Assembly: GCA_965243135.1 (NCBI GenBank)
Contig: OZ251539.1
Span: 1,792,001 to 1,856,000 of the forward strand
Direction of reading: 5' to 3'
DNA from: Alphaproteobacteria bacterium
Lineage (GTDB): Bacteria > Pseudomonadota > Alphaproteobacteria > MPNO01 > UBA830
Length of the DNA stretch: 64,000 nucleotides
The first letter of the stretch is position 1. The number at the start of each line of letters is the position of its first letter. Below are positions 30,396 through 62,429 of this stretch, piece by piece. The notes below the pieces were generated by a model. It was not told the origin of the DNA. It saw only the letters and a list, made by a program, of their open reading frames with translations, and ran no database searches. Position numbers and translations under genes: made by a program.

Positions 30396-30878
30396 CTACA
30401 GGATGAAGCTGACCGAGCCCAGCGCGCCGAGCTCCTCGGAGTCCAGGATCGCCCGGCGTTCGGCTATTTTCAGGCCTTCGCCATCCATCGCCAGCCGATG
30501 CACGTAGCGGCCGACATACTCGCCGCCCCTGCCCCCGCGGCGGAACCTGTGGACGGAGAAATTGGCGGTCACAACGGCGGTCACGCCGTTATCTTCGAGA
30601 ATCCGGACGTTGGCGAGCAGACGGCGGGTGCGCGACGGCGGAAATTCGGCATGGGCGTCCGGGCTCTTGAGGCGTTTCACCCGTGCCCGTATGCGCTTGA
30701 TGTCGTCGGCAATGATAAACAACGTCGTGTCGGGGTCGGCGTCCGGCGCCTCGTTGGGCGGCACCAGATAGCGCGCATCCTCGGCGAGAAGTCCCAGCCA
30801 TGCGTCGAGGTCCCAAGCGTCCAGAAGCGCCGCCTCGTGAAACAGAAACTCTTCGGCCTGCTGCCGCGCAAGTCCCAT
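30396..30878 (-). CDS. Aromatic ring-hydroxylating dioxygenase beta subunit
   Basis: EEFLFHEAALLD.W..W, E.PPSRTRR..NV, KIAERR. Confidence 0.92.
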   Translation of the reverse strand: MGLARQQAEEFLFHEAALLDAWDLDAWLGLLAEDARYLVPPNEAPDADPDTTLFIIADDIKRIRARVKRLKSPDAHAEFPPSRTRRLLANVRILEDNGVTAVVTANFSVHRFRRGGRGGEYVGRYVHRLAMDGEGLKIAERRAILDSEELGALGSVSFIL

Positions 30879-30881
30879 GAC

Positions 30882-32201
30882 CTATACCGCCGCGGGGGCT
30901 GGCGCCGTCATCAGCGCATTCCAGCGCCGCCAGAACGTGCGCAGATGCAGTTCGTCGGAGTTGAGCTGTTCGCCCTCCTTCGCGATCCCGCGAGTCATCA
31001 CCGACCACCGCACTTCTCCGACGGTCTCCGCGATCCCTTCCTGAACCTGTTCGAGCGCTTCCACGTCGTCCGGGGTGGCGAGGCCCCCCGGACCGTAAAA
31101 GGTGAGGAAGGAATCCAGCCTTACCTTCCGCATGACCGGGCTTTCGCCGACCGGCCCGACGGCCCAGGCGGTTACCCTCATGCGATCGGCCGCAGCGGGC
31201 CAAAACGTGCGAACCGTGACGGAAGACCCGTCGTTGATCATGAGGTTCGGAAAGACGAGCAAGTTGCGGTTGGTGTTCGCCACCCGCTCCGCCCGGTCGG
31301 TTCCCAGACGCGCCACGAGCTCGGCCTTCGCCGCCTCGACGGCCGGTTTCGCGGAATCCCCGTATAGCGGGATCCAGGCCGCCACCGGACGCCCCCGGAA
31401 ATTGACGTTGTCGATTACCGCGTGTCCGTTGCCGAGATCCTTTCCCACGCCCCGGCGGGGCAGCAACAGGCCCTTCGGCACGGTTACGTCGACGCCGGAA
31501 TCCTTCATGTACTCAAGCCATGTCGAATGGGTCGAACGCAGGTGATAGTCGTCGAAGGAATTCTCGACGAGCAGCTTCCAGTTGGCGCGAACGTCGTATT
31601 CCTGCACGCCGCCGATCACTTCAAGCCGTCCGTCCGGGGATTGTTCCGCCACAAGGTCGATATATTCCCTCGCCCCAGCGAGATAGTCCGCGAGCGCGGG
31701 CGCATGGCGCGAGAAGGCGGCGAACCAGAAGCCGCGGTATTCTTCGAAGCGGGGCGCCGAGGCCAGTCCGAGCGCCTCGCGGTCGAAAGTGTCGGGATAG
31801 GCGTCGTCCCCCGGGACCGCCGCGAGGCGTCCGTCGTTGTCGTAGGTCCAGCCGTGATAGAAGCAATAGAAACGCCGGGCGTTGCCCCGGCGTTCGCGAC
31901 AGACCTGCGCGCCGCGATGTCGGCACGTGTTCAGGAACAACCTGATCCTGCCTGCGGCGTCGCGGCAGAAAATCACGGGACGTCCGGCGACGCCGCGCGT
32001 CACGAAGTCGCCGGGGCTTCCGATCTCGGATTCGTGCCCGACGTAGATCCAGCTGCGATCGAACACCCGGGAACGCTCCATCGCGAGAATTTCCGGTTCC
32101 ACGAGAGTTCGGCGGTCGAGCTTGAAATCGTGTCCTTCGTCAACGATGTAGGAACCGTTTTTCATCCCGGAATGATGAACCAGCGCTTCTTCCTTGTCCA
32201 T
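30882..32201 (-). CDS. Rieske ring-hydroxylating dioxygenase alpha subunit (p-cumate/benzoate-like)
   Basis: NTCRHRG..CFYHGW Rieske motif; NWKLLVENSFDDYHL.STH; GLATPDD. Confidence 0.92.
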   Translation of the reverse strand: MDKEEALVHHSGMKNGSYIVDEGHDFKLDRRTLVEPEILAMERSRVFDRSWIYVGHESEIGSPGDFVTRGVAGRPVIFCRDAAGRIRLFLNTCRHRGAQVCRERRGNARRFYCFYHGWTYDNDGRLAAVPGDDAYPDTFDREALGLASAPRFEEYRGFWFAAFSRHAPALADYLAGAREYIDLVAEQSPDGRLEVIGGVQEYDVRANWKLLVENSFDDYHLRSTHSTWLEYMKDSGVDVTVPKGLLLPRRGVGKDLGNGHAVIDNVNFRGRPVAAWIPLYGDSAKPAVEAAKAELVARLGTDRAERVANTNRNLLVFPNLMINDGSSVTVRTFWPAAADRMRVTAWAVGPVGESPVMRKVRLDSFLTFYGPGGLATPDDVEALEQVQEGIAETVGEVRWSVMTRGIAKEGEQLNSDELHLRTFWRRWNALMTAPAPAAV

Positions 32202-32479
32202 CTATCGTTTCCGGCGCCGGCGGGCCGCGGCTTCGACGTGGCCCGCCCGTTCGCGACGGAGGCCTTTTCGATCCAGATGCATGGAGCCATAGCACGGAAA
32301 TTCGGAGCGCGGGACGTGCCGCGGCGCGGCGACCCGAGAGCTGCGATGCAAAGCGCCGTTTCCATCCATCGGCTCCCCGATGCTTTTATCTGCGGACATG
32401 GCGAATATTGCCCGGAACGTAGCCGTTCCGGTAAGCTGTTCCAGCATGTAGGATCGGCATGCCGCACGGAGGCGCGACG

Positions 32480-33214
32480 ATGAGCGAAGCAGGAAAAGAA
32501 TACCGGTTCGTAATCGAAGCATATAGTCCCGAAACCATGCCAATGTTGCGGCTAGCCGAATACATGACCGATCTGGCGCGAATATTCGGCGAGAACGAAT
32601 ATGTGCATTTCGTGCGTCTGGAGCGCGGCAGCACCGTTCTGGTACAGGCCGTCGATCCCGATGTCGAGCCCAAAATGCGAGGCAGGCTCCGCGCCATTGC
32701 GAGCGGGGAGCCTCCCGAAGACGCGGCCAGGGCGTTCGGATCGCTGAACGGACGTCTGGCTGCAGACGGTGCGACCGGCAGCCTGCAGGACGGCGACGGC
32801 GCGGAGGTCATCCGGTTTCCCGGTCGCGAACGATCACGGAACGTGAACTATGGGCCGCACAATCAATCGGACACGCTCGATGGCACTCTGATCCGCATAG
32901 GCAGTCGAGACGACACCGTGCCTGTACACCTGAAGGATGACGACACAATCCACATGTGCAATGCGACCCGTTCCATGGCTAAAGATCTGGCACCTTATCT
33001 TTACGGTCCGGTTTTACGAGTACACGGAGATGCACGCTGGGAAAGAAATAGCGATGGCCAATGGTTATTGGAGCGTTTCAATATCAAAAAATTCGAAGAA
33101 CTGGAAGATGTACCGGTTAGCGAAGTCGTAGATCGATTGCGCCGTATCGAAGGAAGCAATTGGAAAAACATTGAAGATCCTGCAGGCGAGATCCAGAGAT
33201 TGCGTAGCTCTTAA
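32480..33214 (+). CDS. Hypothetical protein, accessory type
   Basis: GGAGG RBS, 244-aa ORF (YRFVIEAYSPETMPMLRLAEYMTDLA..VHF..LERGST), lower GC than flanks. Confidence 0.75.
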   Translation: MSEAGKEYRFVIEAYSPETMPMLRLAEYMTDLARIFGENEYVHFVRLERGSTVLVQAVDPDVEPKMRGRLRAIASGEPPEDAARAFGSLNGRLAADGATGSLQDGDGAEVIRFPGRERSRNVNYGPHNQSDTLDGTLIRIGSRDDTVPVHLKDDDTIHMCNATRSMAKDLAPYLYGPVLRVHGDARWERNSDGQWLLERFNIKKFEELEDVPVSEVVDRLRRIEGSNWKNIEDPAGEIQRLRSS

Positions 33215-33851
33215 TGCCAGTTATTGGTAGTGCAGTACCATAACTCTTACTTATTGTTACAGATTTTCAAAATAAAAACTCGAATTTGTTCGAACTGCCG
33301 CATTTTTCATAATCTTCAGTCATTTCTTCAAGAAATTTTTTACGCTCAACGCAAAATTTTCTCCTTGATGGCAGCATCATGGGACATGTGCGGCGACAAT
33401 TCCGTCAAGACTTCGACAAGGCACGCTTGCCGGGAAACAGCACAGCTCTGTCGTAGACACCGGCTGGCGGCCTCGTTATTGGCGAGCGGATTTTTTGATG
33501 GTATAAACCGTTCGCTTCATGTGCGAATGACTGGTCGCTGGGGAGTGACCGCGTGAGGTATCAGCTGGGGTCGTTGCGGTTCTGCGCGATGACCGTCCTG
33601 CTTTCCGCAGATTAGAGGTTTGGAAAGTGCCGCCGCCGCCAGAATCAGAACCTATTCCCGAGTCGGGGCATACGGTCAAAACGGCAGCATGTCCCCCGCG
33701 CCCTAGCCGGTTGCCGTCCGATTACTCGTGCCGTATCGCCCGCCTGGAGTCGCTCCCCGGTAACGCGTCCGGTTCGGACAAGACCTGGGTTCACCGGGCC
33801 CATGCCGAGGCTGTCCGGCATCTGAAATCGGCAATACGGCGTTGACCCGTT

Positions 33852-34367
33852 GTGGATCCGTTCGTCTCGCTCGTCCACGCCCTTTCGGCCGACAAGGTTC
33901 GTTTTCTAATCATCGGCGTGTGGGGAGCTAACTACTACGCGCCGACAGGCAGCGCGATGTTCACCACCCTCGATCGCGACCTCTTCATGCCGGCGGAGCC
34001 CGAAAGTTTGCTTGCCGCGTGGCGCGCATGCGAAGCGAACGGATTTGCGCTGTTCGCCGGCTCGGAGCCGCTCGACCTTCCACGCGATGACGCTCTCGCC
34101 AGCGCCGTGGTGGCGCGGCGCGCGCTCACTCGGGCATCCGATAACGCCGGCACCGATGTGGACCTTTCCTTGGTTATGGGCGATTTTGAATTCGAAACGG
34201 TCTGGAAAGAGCGCAGAATTTTCAAGGTCGACGGAGTTTCCATGCCGGTCGCCAGACTCGCTCACATCGTCCGATCAAAGGCGACGGCTAACCGCGAAAA
34301 GGATCGTCTCTTCCTCGCGACGCACCGGGAGGCGCTTCGACATCTTTTATCAGAAGATGCAATGTAG
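33852..34367 (+). CDS. Minimal nucleotidyltransferase-like protein
   Basis: FLIIGVWGA..TLDRDL, VDL, L..IVRSK...NREKD pattern typical of MNT/DUF6036-like proteins. Confidence 0.7.
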   Translation: MDPFVSLVHALSADKVRFLIIGVWGANYYAPTGSAMFTTLDRDLFMPAEPESLLAAWRACEANGFALFAGSEPLDLPRDDALASAVVARRALTRASDNAGTDVDLSLVMGDFEFETVWKERRIFKVDGVSMPVARLAHIVRSKATANREKDRLFLATHREALRHLLSEDAM

Positions 34368-34518
34368 GCCGAAGCGGCAATAAGGTCGGCGTTCGCTAAG
34401 ACCCAAGAAAGCGCCGAGCGATGAAAGAAAACGGCTGGCCGATCACGAAACCGCCGGATGTCCGGAAGACGGCTCCATGCCGCCGCGACGTCGCGGCGTT
34501 TCCCGGCGGGACCGGGCG

Positions 34519-36087
34519 ATGACCGATCAGCGTTGCCAGGTTGCGATCGTCGGCGGCGGCCCGGTCGGGCTGGCTCTCGCAGTCGATCTTGGGCTGCGAG
34601 GCATCTCGTGCATTCTCGTCGAACGGCGGCGCGGCCTCCACAATATCCCGAAGGGACAGAATCTTACCCAGCGGACGCTTGAACATTTCCATTTTTGGGG
34701 GATCGCCGACGAACTGCGAGCCTCAAGGGTGATTCCCGCCGATTTTCCCGGAAATTTCATCGTCGCTTACGGCAGCCTCGCCAGCGAGCACTGGTACGTG
34801 CCAGCGGCCCGGGAAGACGTCGACCGTTATTTCTACCAACGCGGCGACCGCCTGCCCCAGTACCTCGCCGAGAGAGTGCTTCGGAGGAGGCTGGCGGATT
34901 GCGCCGGCGTCGAAACGATGTATGGATGGGAAGCGAAAGCCGTCAACGACGCGGACGAGGGCGTTCGGGTCGAAATCTCCGACGGAACCCGGCGCCGGAC
35001 GCTGATGGCGGATTACGCCGTCGGATGCGACGGCAACCGCTCCCTGGTCCGAACCCAGCTCGGCCTTTCCCGGAGCGGGACCGACTACGACCGGCCGATG
35101 GTGCTTGCGGTGTTCCGCTCGCGCGAACTGCACGAGCGACTAAAGCGCTTTCCCCCCGCATACATTTACCGAGTCGTTCACAAGGATTTGCGCGGCTACT
35201 GGCGATTCTTCGGCCGCGTCGACGACCGCAGCCGCTGGTTCTTTCACGCGCCTGCCCCCGCGGACCCGAAGGAACGCGCTGTGCGCCGGTTGCTCCACGA
35301 CGCGGCCGGGTTCGGTTTTTCCTGCAGTTTCGACCACATCGGATCTTGGAACCTGCATGTCTCGATTGCGGACGACTACCGCCGCCGAAGGATATTCATC
35401 GCCGGCGATGCCGCCCACAGCCATCCGCCTTACGGCGGATTTGGGTTGAACAGCGGTTTGGAGGACGCCGTCAATTTGGGATGGAAGCTTGCCGCCGTTC
35501 TCGAGGGTTGGGGCGGCGAAACGTTGTTGCAGTCCTATGCGGACGAGCGGCGACCCGTAATCCGGGAAACGACGAAACATTTTATCGAAGGCCGGATAAC
35601 CGAGGATCGCGTTTTCCTCGATCGCTTCGATCCCGAGAGGAATCCCGACGAGTTCGCCCGAGCCTGGCAGGAGCACCGAGCGGCGGGCGCGAGGCGCACG
35701 ATGGCCTACGTGCCCCATTACGAAGGTTCGCCCGTAATCGCCGGGCCGTCCGCCGGCGTCTGCGGAGCGATCGGCGAACATCGCCTGACCGCCCGCGCCG
35801 GCCATCATCTTGCGCCCTTGCGGCTTGCGTCCGGCATCAACGCGTTCGAGGTCCTGGGACGTCGCTTCACGCTGTTCGCCTTCGATGCCGAAGCCTCCGC
35901 GGTCGGGGAATTCGAACATGCGGCCCGGCGACTCGCCATACCGCTTCAGGTCGTTCGTGACAGGCTGGAGGGCGGCACCTACGGCGCCCGCATCGTTCTC
36001 GTGCGTCCCGATCAACACGTCGTCTGGACAGGAGATACGGCTCCGGCGGATGCGGCCGCCTTGATGTCGCAGGTCACGGGACGATAG
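34519..36087 (+). CDS. FAD-dependent monooxygenase (PheA/TfdB-like)
   Basis: IVGGGPVG, GCDG.RS.VR, AGDAAH.HPP.GGFGLNSG.EDA.NLGWKL, LVRPDQHV. Confidence 0.93.
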   Translation: MTDQRCQVAIVGGGPVGLALAVDLGLRGISCILVERRRGLHNIPKGQNLTQRTLEHFHFWGIADELRASRVIPADFPGNFIVAYGSLASEHWYVPAAREDVDRYFYQRGDRLPQYLAERVLRRRLADCAGVETMYGWEAKAVNDADEGVRVEISDGTRRRTLMADYAVGCDGNRSLVRTQLGLSRSGTDYDRPMVLAVFRSRELHERLKRFPPAYIYRVVHKDLRGYWRFFGRVDDRSRWFFHAPAPADPKERAVRRLLHDAAGFGFSCSFDHIGSWNLHVSIADDYRRRRIFIAGDAAHSHPPYGGFGLNSGLEDAVNLGWKLAAVLEGWGGETLLQSYADERRPVIRETTKHFIEGRITEDRVFLDRFDPERNPDEFARAWQEHRAAGARRTMAYVPHYEGSPVIAGPSAGVCGAIGEHRLTARAGHHLAPLRLASGINAFEVLGRRFTLFAFDAEASAVGEFEHAARRLAIPLQVVRDRLEGGTYGARIVLVRPDQHVVWTGDTAPADAAALMSQVTGR

Positions 36088-36263
36088 TCCTCGACGGTGC
36101 GGGCGCGCAAAGCGGAGAACCATTCGCACGCCTGTGCCTGGAGGCGGGGGAGACAAGCGCTCGGCCGGCGACCGGGATTCAGAGCCTTCAGAACCGGGGG
36201 CATCGGTAGCGGCAGCGCCCTTCGGCGCAGGTCGCTTGCGCCGCGCGACGGCGGAAGCGTCAA

Positions 36264-37505
36264 TTATCGATCCCACAACTCGCTCAGCGGCACGGCCAGC
36301 AGGCGCTCGTCGCGCATCGGCAGAACATCCCTTCCGTCGTAGAGCAGAATGCCTTGCTCGAAATCCGCGCCACACCGCTCCGCAAGTCGGGCGAGGCCCT
36401 GCCCGTCCTTCGAAGTCAGAGTGGCGCTGGCCTTGACTTCGATACCCCAAGTCCGCTCGCCCCGGGTCAAGACCACATCGACCTCTACCTGATCCTTGTC
36501 ACGATAATGCCACAACCGTACGTCGGGGTCGGTCCATGCGGCTTGGGCGGCGAGTTGCTGAACCACCCAAGCTTCCAACAGATGCCCCATGCGGTTCCGA
36601 TTATGAAGCCAGTCCTCGGCTTTCAAATCGGCAAGGACTGCCGCAACGCCGCTATCGATCAGGTACGCTTTCGGCGAACTGACGAGACGTTTGGCCGGAT
36701 TACGACGCCAAGCGGGCAGACGCCGCACCAGATACAGCCGTTCGAGCACGCCCAGATAGCGCTCCACCGTTTCCCTGCGCAACCCGAGGTCGCCGGCGGC
36801 ACGGCTTGCGTTAAAGATTTCACCATTCCGCAGAGCGAGGAGTTCCAACAGGCGAAGCAGTTCACGAGCATCTCTCACGCGGGCCACATCGCGCACGTCT
36901 CTTTCAATTATGCTTTGCAGATATTGCCGATGCCATTGCCTTGCACGGACGGGGCTTCGGGTGAGCGCCACGGGATAGCCGCCAGCCACCATGCGTTGCG
37001 CCAGCGTCGACCCGGCAGGCGAATCGCGGTTTCCGATACCCGGCTGGAAATCGCCTTTCAACAAGGCGCTTACGAACCCGCCGGCCCGCCCCTCTTTTTC
37101 GGCTTCCGTCAGAGGATGCAATTGCGTGATTTCCATGCGGCCCGCGAGAGATTCAGTCACACTGGGCAGAAGCAGCAAATTAGCCGAACCGGTGAGCAGG
37201 AAACGACCGGACTTGCGGTTCTGGTCGACCGCGAGCTTGATGGCTGGAAACAGGGTCGGAACCCGTTGTATCTCATCGAGAATCACGGCACCCGGCAGGT
37301 TGGCGACGAACCCGTTGGGATCCGACGAAGCGGTCCGGTAGTAGTTGTCCTCGTCCAGGCTGATGAAGGCGTGATCTGGCGCAATCTGCCGAACGAGCGT
37401 AGTTTTCCCGCATTGCCGCGGACCGAGAACGCAGACTACAGGCGTATCCGCCAGTGCTTCATGAATTACGGGCGTCAACAAACGGGGAAAAAAATTCGAA
37501 ATCAT
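36264..37505 (-). CDS. AAA+ ATPase with wHTH and C-terminal DUF4143 PD-(D/E)XK nuclease-fold domain
   Basis: GPRQCGKT, ILDEIQ, LTGS, ESLAGR, GGYP, HTH-like FNASRAAGDLGLRRETVERYL, EVDVV..GIEVK. Confidence 0.9.
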   Translation of the reverse strand: MISNFFPRLLTPVIHEALADTPVVCVLGPRQCGKTTLVRQIAPDHAFISLDEDNYYRTASSDPNGFVANLPGAVILDEIQRVPTLFPAIKLAVDQNRKSGRFLLTGSANLLLLPSVTESLAGRMEITQLHPLTEAEKEGRAGGFVSALLKGDFQPGIGNRDSPAGSTLAQRMVAGGYPVALTRSPVRARQWHRQYLQSIIERDVRDVARVRDARELLRLLELLALRNGEIFNASRAAGDLGLRRETVERYLGVLERLYLVRRLPAWRRNPAKRLVSSPKAYLIDSGVAAVLADLKAEDWLHNRNRMGHLLEAWVVQQLAAQAAWTDPDVRLWHYRDKDQVEVDVVLTRGERTWGIEVKASATLTSKDGQGLARLAERCGADFEQGILLYDGRDVLPMRDERLLAVPLSELWDR

Positions 37506-38490
37506 TTGCCTATTGCCCTAGCGTCCGTCTGCTTTCTTAGTCAGCGTTCATTTGCGGTTTACTATATCGTCCAATTGCCGCTTGACGTGGCGTCAAGTTG
37601 CCTATTGCCCTAGCGTTCGCCTGCTTTCTGCTCCAGCGTCTGTCTGCCGTTTATCATACCGTCTGATCATTGTCTGGTATCTCGTCCATTTGCCTACCGT
37701 CCCAGCGTCCATCCGCTTTCCTGATCAGTGTCCGTTTGCAGTTTACTATATTGTCCACTTGCTGTCTGATATGGCGTCAAGTTGCCTATTGCCATAGCGT
37801 CGACCTGCTTTCTTCTCCAGCGTCTATCTGCCGTTTATCATACCGTCTGATCATTGTCTGGTATAGCGTCCATTTGCCTATCGTTTCAGCGTCCATCCGC
37901 TTTCCTGATCAGCGTCTAATTGCGGGTTATTATACCGTCTAACTGCTGTCTGATATGGCGTCAAGTTGCCTATTGCCATAGCGTCGACCTGCTTTCTTCT
38001 TCAGCGTCTATCTGCCGTTTATCATACCGTCTGATCATTGTCTGGTATAGCGTCCATTTGCCTATCGTTTCAGCGTCCATCCGCTTTCCTGATCAGCGTC
38101 TAATTGCGGTTTGTTATAATGTCTAATTGCTGTCTGATATAGCGTCTATTTGCCTATTGCCATAGCGTTCTCCTGCTTTTTGCTCCAGCGTCTGTCTGGC
38201 GTTTATCATACCGTCTGATCATTGTCTGGTATCGCGTCCATTTGCCTACCGTCCCAGCGTCCATCCGCTTTCCCGATCAGTGTCCGTTTGCGGTTTTCTA
38301 TATTGTCCAGTTGCCGCTTGATATCGCGTCCATTTGCCTATCGTCTTAGCGTCCATCCGCTTTCCTGACCAGCATCTAATTGCTGTCTGATATGGCGTCT
38401 ATTTGCCTATTGCCATAGCGTTCGCCTGCTTTTTGCTCCAGCGTCTGCTTGCCGTTTATTGTAGATTGCTGGCTGGCATAGCGTCTGTTC
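37498..38490. repeat. Tandem array of 23-bp monomers with 4-mer (92 bp) and 8-mer (184 bp) higher-order repeats
   Basis: 41 contiguous 23-bp monomers from 37521 to 38463 with no indels, consensus approximately GCGTC-n4-TGC-n10-A, e.g. GCGTCAAGTTGCCTATTGCCATA at 37774 and 37958; partial monomers at both ends. Confidence 0.95.
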
Positions 38491-38653
38491 AGCAAAAAAC
38501 TGGCATTGGTGCTGATTTCCTGTACAGAAACGATACGTTACCTATTGTTTTGAAAACCGACCTGCCTATCGCAGGTTCAAGACTTTCCTGCGGCAATCGC
38601 GGGCAGCAAGGCACTCGTTCACGGCATTCCCGGAAAAGCTGACGCGCGCCGCG

Positions 38654-39052
38654 CTACTCGGTGTCCGGGACCATCGCTGTCGTCTCGATCTCCACTCTGG
38701 CGCGATCCTCCATCAGCGCGACGACCTGGACCGCCGCCATTGCCGGGAAAACGAGGCCCATCACCTCGCGATAAGCTGTTCCGACTTCCCGCAGATTCGC
38801 CAGATATTCACGCTTGTCGACGAAATACATCGTCATGCGGCAAACGTGCTCCGGCGCCGCGCCGCCTTCGCGCAACACCGCCACCGTGTTGATCATCGCT
38901 TGACGGAACTGCGGAACGAATTCGTCGCTCTCGAACTTCTCCTCGGCGTTCCAACCGACCATTCCGGCGACGAACACCATTCGACCCTCGGCCGCGATCC
39001 CGTTCGAATACCCTTTCGGCCTGGACCAGCCAGGGGGATTGAGAACCCGCAT
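38654..39052 (-). CDS. RidA family protein (type found in abm clusters)
   Basis: PPGW.RPKGYSNG, FVAGMVG, FPAM..V.V.AL, VEIETTA. Confidence 0.9.
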   Translation of the reverse strand: MRVLNPPGWSRPKGYSNGIAAEGRMVFVAGMVGWNAEEKFESDEFVPQFRQAMINTVAVLREGGAAPEHVCRMTMYFVDKREYLANLREVGTAYREVMGLVFPAMAAVQVVALMEDRARVEIETTAMVPDTE

Positions 39053-62342: not shown

Positions 62343-62429
62343 GCGGTCGTGGCGGAATTGGTAGACGCGCAGCGTTGAGGTCGCTGTGGGAGAAATCCCG
62401 TGGAAGTTCGAGTCTTCTCGACCGCACCA
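62343..62429 (+). tRNA. tRNA-Leu (anticodon GAG)
   Basis: Acceptor stem GCGGTCG/CGACCGC-A-CCA, D-arm GGCGGAATTGGTAGACGC, anticodon arm CAGCG-TTGAGGT-CGCTG, long variable arm, GTTCGAG T-loop. Confidence 0.97.

Follow-up and report, generated by a model that had tools for sequence, protein, structure and literature searches.

In iteron-Rep plasmids, direct repeats of ~19-23 bp include sites over the gene promoter, and extra iteron clusters titrate the initiator. Archaeal Orc1/Cdc6 proteins work with origin recognition box (ORB) repeats, and bacterial DnaA has boxes in its own promoter together with the datA sink. The C proteins of restriction-modification systems use repeated operators over a leaderless or near-leaderless promoter to restrain a nuclease gene. 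Here we describe an array of 23-bp monomers directly upstream of an ATPase-nuclease gene in an alphaproteobacterial genome (assembly GCA_965243135.1, contig OZ251539.1, positions 1,792,001 to 1,856,000 of the forward strand). This stretch of 64,000 nucleotides is referred to as the window, and coordinates given without a label are window positions. The two elements are as follows.

37497-38462, minus strand: array of 42 phased 23-bp monomers (Tandem Repeats Finder (TRF), 23-column rows, weight matrix, lag identities).
36264-37505, minus strand: AAA_14/winged-helix/DUF4143 (PD-(D/E)XK) gene, 413 amino acids (aa), PDC-S01 member (open reading frame (ORF), Pfam, PADLOC, AlphaFold2 (AF2) model).

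The locus resembles the iteron-Rep plasmids in its phased direct repeats beside the gene of a presumed binder, and its large cluster could be a sink; it differs in that the protein is an AAA+/nuclease and not a Rep, the locus is chromosomal and the sites are far more numerous. With Orc1 and DnaA it shares an AAA+ domain followed by a DNA-binding (winged-)helix domain and repeated sites near the protein's own gene, whereas a C-terminal nuclease is present here and the TM-scores to Orc1 were low (0.26), so that the likeness is one of domains. As in the C-protein systems, a nuclease gene is proposed to be checked through repeated operators overlapping its promoter; the C protein, however, is a separate small helix-turn-helix protein with inverted sites, whereas here a domain of the enzyme itself would presumably bind head-to-tail sites. 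The order of NTPase, helical domain and winged helix is also that of PAB2304 (2qen), SSO1545 (2fna) and the STAND NTPases (CED-4, Apaf-1, plant NLRs, Avs), in which sensor repeats (TPR, LRR, WD40) take the place of the C-terminal PD-(D/E)XK domain; the identity is 10-21%. The PDC-S01 candidate (AAA_14 plus DUF4143; COG1373) shares with our protein a full-length profile match and the same ATPase-nuclease architecture. PDC-S01 has been described as an untested family with an ATPase and a PD-(D/E)XK domain, and is reported to rank fourth in frequency among the defence candidates of prokaryotes; no mechanism is given in the accessible part of that report (PMC12988326). The list of these candidates originates in bioRxiv 10.1101/2024.01.29.577857. 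As far as the accessible parts of these sources go, the candidate is defined by protein models only and no cis element is described, and the neighbours at our locus are catabolic.

From the conservation of the phased sites, we consider it probable that the monomers are the PDC-S01 protein's own operator, acting in negative autoregulation, and that this operator was amplified about ten-fold here. An earlier note, made from the letters of the window alone, had presented gene and array as a candidate undescribed system. For the gene this description is superseded, as the PDC-S01 model PDLC04790 matched residues 1-412 of 413 (E 5e-154) and six more PDC-S01 models matched as well. The gene is thus a new member of a known candidate family, and autoregulation by operators is a known principle. 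In the literature on DUF4143, PDC-S01, COG1373, PF13635 and PF13173/AAA_14 (supplements not covered), we found nothing on upstream repeats and no earlier description of a start-codon-containing 23-bp operator or of its growth to 42 units.

Phased sites upstream of the orthologues

The orthologue sample comprised 80 loci with 57-72% identity (L022-L101), related genomes among them, and the record titles name at least six phyla. These titles include Latescibacterota, Acidobacteriota, Gemmatimonadota, Binatia, Spirochaetia, Verrucomicrobiota and several proteobacterial classes. The spread of orthologues across phyla points to frequent horizontal transfer. In most of the 80 loci, TRF detected a 23-bp repeat that runs up to the start of the gene. 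The loci were anchored on the start codon, 23-mers were cut upstream and the information was summed; monomers 0-4 held 23.0, 20.8, 16.0, 7.6 and 3.0 bits, and monomers 5-8 held 1.0-1.3 bits. The consensus on the gene strand was TAACCGnCAATTGGACGCT, with the core CAAnTGGACGC. In monomer 0 the core was CAAATGGACGC, the ATG of which is the start codon, and in several loci without ATG a TTG within CAATTGG was found at the same position.

Chains of sites were counted in the zone from -450 to +30 by means of a weight matrix derived from monomers 1 and 2. A chain of at least three phased sites was present in the upstream zone of 77 of the 80 loci. Of the 79 loci that had a chain of at least two, 70 had it end at +8, with the last monomer holding the start codon. 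The spacing between cores was 23 bp 177 times and 46 bp 16 times; any other spacing of up to 60 bp occurred at most twice. Elsewhere in the same loci (~1.3 Mb, both strands), chains of at least three were found in only 4 of the 80, and three of these (L062, L038 and L041) are followed by 5' remnants of the same gene. The earlier note had proposed that homologues be searched for upstream 23-bp periodicity and that arrays beside unrelated genes would count against the link; both lines of evidence favour it, and the monomers are likely to be phased sites tied to the gene, as the note had supposed.

The extra arrays before the gene remnants lie at L038:5250-5318, L041:5248-5316 and L062:3170-3284, and arrays before truncated gene copies suggest turnover or recombination at the arrays. 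At L025:8957-9025, which is 5 kb away from the orthologue, a promoter-like site and a three-site chain were observed ~60 nucleotides (nt) ahead of a sulfatase-like ORF; the chain could be a remnant, or a second gene could be under the same control.

In the 2-kb surroundings of the orthologues, any one ORF family was common to at most 9 of the 80 loci, and those that recurred reflect lineage synteny. Because the gene alone travels with the sites, its product is likely to be the binder. Cultured carriers exist. On Spartinivicinus ruber plasmid pB, the orthologue is preceded by phased sites at -110, -87, -64 and -41, four in all (21-27 bits), and four weaker sites are present on an Azotobacter salinestris plasmid.

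Putative promoter elements within the repeat

The hexamer TAnnnT was found at -15 to -10 from the ATG in 57 of the 80 orthologue loci, and at that place 39 loci matched TTGACA-N16-18-TATAAT in at least 8 of 12 positions. Examples are TTTACA-N17-TATAAT (L033) and TTTACA-N16-TATGCT, which was seen in many Verrucomicrobia records. The putative promoter elements lie in the spacers just 5' of the cores of monomers 1 (-35) and 0 (-10), and the period of 23 therefore equals 6 + 17. A predicted transcript is expected to have at most a few nucleotides of leader, and with the -10 element in the last spacer of most orthologues, most of the array would not be transcribed.

Linkage of the motif to the gene in metagenomes

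The linkage was also approached from the DNA side. Metagenome contigs were scanned for two cores 23 bp apart, and 80 of at least 120 stretches were analysed. In 48 of these 80 motif-pair loci, a homologue of the gene started -6 to +170 nt downstream on the same strand; one locus had too little downstream sequence to judge, and in the remaining 31 no such gene was detected by tblastn. Six of the 31 nevertheless held broken or internally deleted copies (L163, L169, L170, L184, L180 and L204). Several gene-less motif pairs were short exact duplications and may be unrelated. Motif pairs were also observed before an AbiEi-like ORF (L200), recognised by eye from its translation, and before a tRNA region (L216).

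The array in the window

TRF reported a single array at 37503-38383 with nested periods of 23, 46, 92 and 184 bp. When the sequence was laid out in 23-base rows, the register of CGTC....TGC was constant along the whole stretch, which shows that the array has no indels. The window monomers were scored with a weight matrix trained solely on orthologues of other genomes. Forty-two phased monomers, from 37497-37519 through 38440-38462, scored far above the genome background (mean -25.6 bits, standard deviation 9.5); 32 of them exceeded its 99.9th percentile, and the weakest scored -1.0 bits. Past 38462 the scores dropped to about -29, and the half core AGCGTC at 38480-38485 was the sole remnant beyond the array.

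38463-38653: degenerate 43rd monomer, then unique sequence up to the stop of the RidA-like gene; right edge of the inserted segment described below (scores ~-29 bits; same-genus homology back from ~38642).

On the gene strand the array consensus was ata.cAaaa.GCAa.t.GACGCT, organised in 4- and 8-monomer higher-order units. The mean identity between monomers was 0.52-0.53 for lags 1-3, rose to 0.67 at lag 4 and to 0.82 at lag 8, and was 0.78 at lag 16; the monomer types are ~52% identical to one another, yet GCA....GACGCT is retained. Single-linkage clustering of the monomers merged most classes. The gene strand of the array contains 25 ATG triplets. The G+C content of the array is 47-50%, with a strongly T-rich plus strand, and that of the genome is 65%.

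The array is present as a single copy in the 6.1-Mb one-contig genome and was not found by BLAST in 60 relatives (0/60). The protein likewise had no close orthologue in these 60 relatives (best identity 44-46%), so the history of the array is not traceable through them. Logan short-read contigs from runs of three studies covered both array edges, and contigs of run X1 contained array pieces with 0 differences; the count of 42 rests on the assembly, as no short-read contig spanned the array. Several of the runs holding the window stretch are labelled sponge metagenome. A protein-coding array was ruled out, since 23 is not divisible by 3 and all ORFs in the array are of 90 aa or less. A CRISPR array was also ruled out, as the 23-mers are contiguous without spacers. 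CRISPR-like arrays sit elsewhere in the genome.

The start codon is part of the array.

37497-37519, minus strand: monomer 0, containing the start codon (matrix score 0.5 bits; core degenerate).

The array lies directly 5' of the gene and the ATG of the gene (CAT at 37503-37505) falls within monomer 0, which bears out the earlier placement of the array in the promoter/leader position with the ATG inside a monomer. The core of monomer 0 is ATGATTTCG in the window and ATGGACGC in relatives, and the hexamer at -15 to -10 is TAGGGC instead of TAnnnT. The closest relatives of the protein, P0002 and P0003 (92-93% identity), begin with MDANFF, the canonical form. The proximal control region of the window gene therefore looks decayed, judging from these letters.

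The encoded protein

The motifs and domains assigned to the protein are listed below.

37398-37424, minus strand: Walker A, residues 28-36 (GPRQCGKTT); G28, G33, K34 and T36 invariant in 31 sequences.
37272-37277, minus strand: Walker B, D77-E78; invariant columns in the 31-sequence alignment.
36621-36830, minus strand: winged helix-turn-helix, residues ~226-295, with basic wing W266, R273 and K279 (MarR match, model, structure matches).
36432-36518, minus strand: PD-(D/E)XK core, residues 330-358 including D343, E356 and K358 (conserved columns; model strands 330-357).

Pfam identified AAA_14 (PF13173, E 5.6e-26, residues 22-136) and DUF4143 (PF13635, E 1.6e-46, residues 201-360), and otherwise only a weak ATPase_2 match. 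The Walker residues and the nuclease residues D343, E356 and K358 occupy columns that are invariant or at least 90% conserved in the 31 sequences, in agreement with the earlier statement that the EVD..IEVK motif is intact. W266, R273 and K279 of the wing are invariant. The AF2 model (predicted local distance difference test score 90.5) contained helices at 233-240 and 244-256 with strands after them, and residues 226-295 showed a weak sequence match to a MarR regulator, apart from which no sequence relative was found among solved structures. The C-terminal end is a 110-residue PD-(D/E)XK domain, and the PADLOC CARF_PDDEXK models gave weak hits at residues 294-368.

Structural comparison of the model revealed that residues 1 to ~293 match the AAA+/winged-helix proteins 2qen (Z-score 15.8, 253 residues aligned) and 2fna (Z-score 14.9), and the STAND NTPases RPP1, CED-4 and WRR4A gave Z-scores of 13-14.4 over residues 1 to ~300. 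The Foldseek list includes Orc1/Cdc6-DNA complexes (2v1u, 2qby) and Can2/Cdn1 nucleases. Proteins that are ~70% identical are abundant, and a few were found at 89-93%.

Paralogues and distant family members

The genome contains ~20 paralogues. The paralogue at genome position 3828223 has TTTCAATTGGTCG repeats with a 22-bp period at the same place, that at 1119982 has a different 22-bp unit in approximately nine copies, and homologues in relatives carry their own repeats there. More distant members often have inverted repeats abutting the ATG, with TTGCAA/TTGAAA and a -10-like element. Taken together, these arrangements suggest operator-like repeats as a possible family-wide rule. In distant DUF4143 genes (L113, L118, L120, L121, L131, L135 and others), the inverted repeats CCTTGCAA...TTGCAAGG end at the ATG; from their letters, these repeats resemble -35 and -10 elements with a leaderless start. 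In the closest paralogue (46% identity; C1:802856-804079, L003), the match is preceded by neither an in-frame start codon nor repeats, and this paralogue is probably a 5'-truncated pseudogene.

Proposed autoregulation

The anatomy of the sites, their conservation, their linkage to the gene and the exceptional copy number are direct observations, from which we infer the gene product as the binder of the sites, repression as the outcome of binding, and the position of the transcription start site. In the normal state, three to five head-to-tail sites would cover the gene's own promoter: a first core would sit in the -35/-10 spacer, a second would span the transcription start together with the start codon, and one to three more would lie farther upstream; the core over the start codon would at the same time encode Met-Asp-Ala. 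By occupying these sites through its winged helix, the protein would repress its own gene, and a potentially harmful nuclease would thereby be kept low. In the window, unequal recombination would have produced 42 sites in 4- and 8-monomer units, while the start-codon site and the -10 element would have decayed. The extra sites, the only such cluster of the chromosome, could soak up protein, an effect that may be either selected or neutral.

Such an operator would provide the first lead on the regulation of the PDC-S01 candidate. It predicts a defined DNA for the protein to bind, an autoregulatory circuit and a near-leaderless promoter, and the plasmid-borne orthologues of S. ruber and A. salinestris offer cultured material. 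The 42-copy array would represent a rare bacterial higher-order-repeat 'satellite' grown from a regulatory site, and a natural titration experiment.

Several observations weigh against the operator reading. The 80 orthologue loci include related genomes and are not independent. Among the motif-pair loci, 25 of 80 were without a recognisable gene, and pairs were present before an ECF sigma factor (L159) and another AAA ATPase (L218), both identified by eye. A crude repeat statistic was positive in only 5 of 16 other paralogues, compared with 13 of 400 control genes. The promoter layout is not uniform, as L022, L024, L028 and others have no TAnnnT in the last spacer; this subgroup has, by eye, a promoter-like TTGATC-N17-TAGATT 5' of three sites. 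The evidence for constraint on the cores, presented in the next section, is modest (p 0.025 and 0.009), and the pairs compared are related. In the window itself, site 0 is degenerate and a promoter scan found no sigma-70-like promoter in or beside the array, and thus autoregulation may have ceased here.

Amplification of the array and alternative explanations

The copy number was 3-5 in 70 of the 80 genome loci, with maxima of 15 (L036) and 10 (L066), and it did not exceed 8 in the metagenome loci; with 42 monomers, the window array is an extreme copy-number outlier. The ~40 sites of the earlier note are accordingly confirmed for this locus but are far from the norm of the family. The identity peaks at lags 4 and 8 point to a four-site operator that was duplicated to 92-bp and then 184-bp units. 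A related strain differs by one such unit.

37506-37597: 92 bp (four monomers) missing in the related strain; a 10.4-kb contig of run X8 joins 37505 to 37598.

At the X8 joint, 19 letters fit either side. The 92/184-bp pattern and the 92-bp strain variant fit amplification by unequal recombination between monomers; the earlier suggestion that the enzyme itself generated the array finds no support. The additional copies in L036 are located 5' of intact proximal sites that keep TATAAT. Between well-registered higher-order copies in the window, 17 of 64 mismatches fell in the nine core columns (25.0 expected), and an alternative count of extra states gave 13 of 56 (21.9 expected), a modest sign that the cores stayed under constraint after amplification.

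The alternative that survives best, which we regard as possible though rather doubtful, is that the short operator works in relatives while the 42-copy array is neutral: slippage or unequal recombination would have produced it in a locus under decay, it would have no role of its own, and the gene may be poorly or not expressed. It is compatible with an operator origin of the monomers. A decaying locus would be expected to show the degenerate site 0 and -10 hexamer and the missing promoter; the difference in copy number between strains, the expansions that recur in other lineages, the location in a strain-specific insertion and the paralogue of this genome already without a start codon fit as well. 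The ORF, however, is intact with all catalytic residues present, and the gene differs from that of the related strain by mostly synonymous single-nucleotide polymorphisms (15 synonymous and 7 non-synonymous, 22 listed). Moreover, the substitutions between higher-order copies avoid the core columns, and monomer types with only ~52% identity have kept GCA....GACGCT, which counts against a neutral array.

An extension of the operator reading, which we consider unlikely, is that PDC-S01 assembles head-to-tail on the 23-bp sites and that the array serves as a DNA 'antidote', storing inactive nuclease and setting a threshold for its release or activation, for example by competing foreign DNA or a phage factor. 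If true, a defence or toxin module would be regulated by a DNA stretch and not by a second protein, which would supply a mechanism for a very common candidate family.

Less probable still, the repeats may belong to a small mobile or replicating module as its iterons or end sites, on which the protein would act as an initiator or a recombinase, comparable to Orc1-ORB or Rep-iteron systems. The 22-23-bp direct repeats beside an AAA+/winged-helix gene with an Orc1-like or STAND-like fold invite this comparison, as do the orthologues across phyla, the homologues on 226 plasmid records (up to 53% identity), the location at the edge of a 6.4-kb insertion and the arrays beside truncated gene copies. 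Phage records held only five distant homologues. In contrast to what such a module would lead one to expect, the sites are one-sided and overlap promoter and start codon, ~20 paralogues share one chromosome and conserved partner genes are lacking. Additionally, Pfam detected no Rep or integrase family in the protein and NCBIfam nothing relevant, and the cumulative GC skew has no turn at the array, whose locus is chromosomal.

There is also a slim chance that another host factor, a global regulator or nucleoid protein, binds the repeats. Binding by the gene product is, after all, an inference, and a few motif pairs precede other genes or the sulfatase-like ORF. Genome-wide, however, the sites cluster only at the array: of 111 matrix hits of at least 14 bits, 20 lie inside it and the remaining 91 are isolated. 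The core is conserved beside orthologues in at least six phyla, where other neighbours are common to 9 of 80 loci at most, and the paralogues have different repeats, both of which argue for the gene product in place of a general factor.

That the repeats act as RNA, either as a repetitive 5' leader controlling translation or as the RNA partner raised in the earlier note, is highly improbable, since, although the subgroup with a promoter-like site 5' of the sites (by eye) would transcribe them and many loci have no obvious Shine-Dalgarno at the start codon, the -10 element in the last spacer of 57 of 80 loci leaves at most a few nucleotides of leader and the array RNA folds no better than shuffled sequences (z -1.58). 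An RNA gene at the array was ruled out on the same folding result and on Rfam, which at gathering thresholds gave only a tRNA in the window.

Genomic context

The gene and the array are found at the right edge of a segment that is absent from the same-genus genomes G002, G003 and G004.

32200-38640: 6.4-kb segment absent from three same-genus genomes (comparison with G002, G003 and G004); gene and array at its right edge.

In all three genomes, the Rieske dioxygenase genes (window 30396-32201) and the RidA-like gene (window 38654-39052) are direct neighbours, which identifies ~32200-38640 as an insertion. The neighbours are catabolic and comprise a FAD monooxygenase, the RidA-like gene, an SDR, an enoyl-CoA hydratase and the Rieske dioxygenase. 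No defence genes were found beside the window gene, and the unknown ORFs at 32386-34692 had no PADLOC hit. These ORFs, of 251, 110 and 171 aa, also had no Pfam or NCBIfam match, and PADLOC and NCBIfam gave nothing for six ORFs of the inserted segment. The left part of the segment (32386-34692) has a low G+C content (0.41-0.47 around 33000-33600).

The only RNA gene found in the window is a tRNA-Leu (GAG) at 62343-62429. Elsewhere in the genome, an apparently non-coding tandem array with a period of 242/485 bp (7.5/3.7 copies) is located at C1:5019800-5021605, and CRISPR-like arrays are present at C1:5265568-5272848 (period 66, ~110 units) and C1:5304512-5306492 (period 61, ~32 units).

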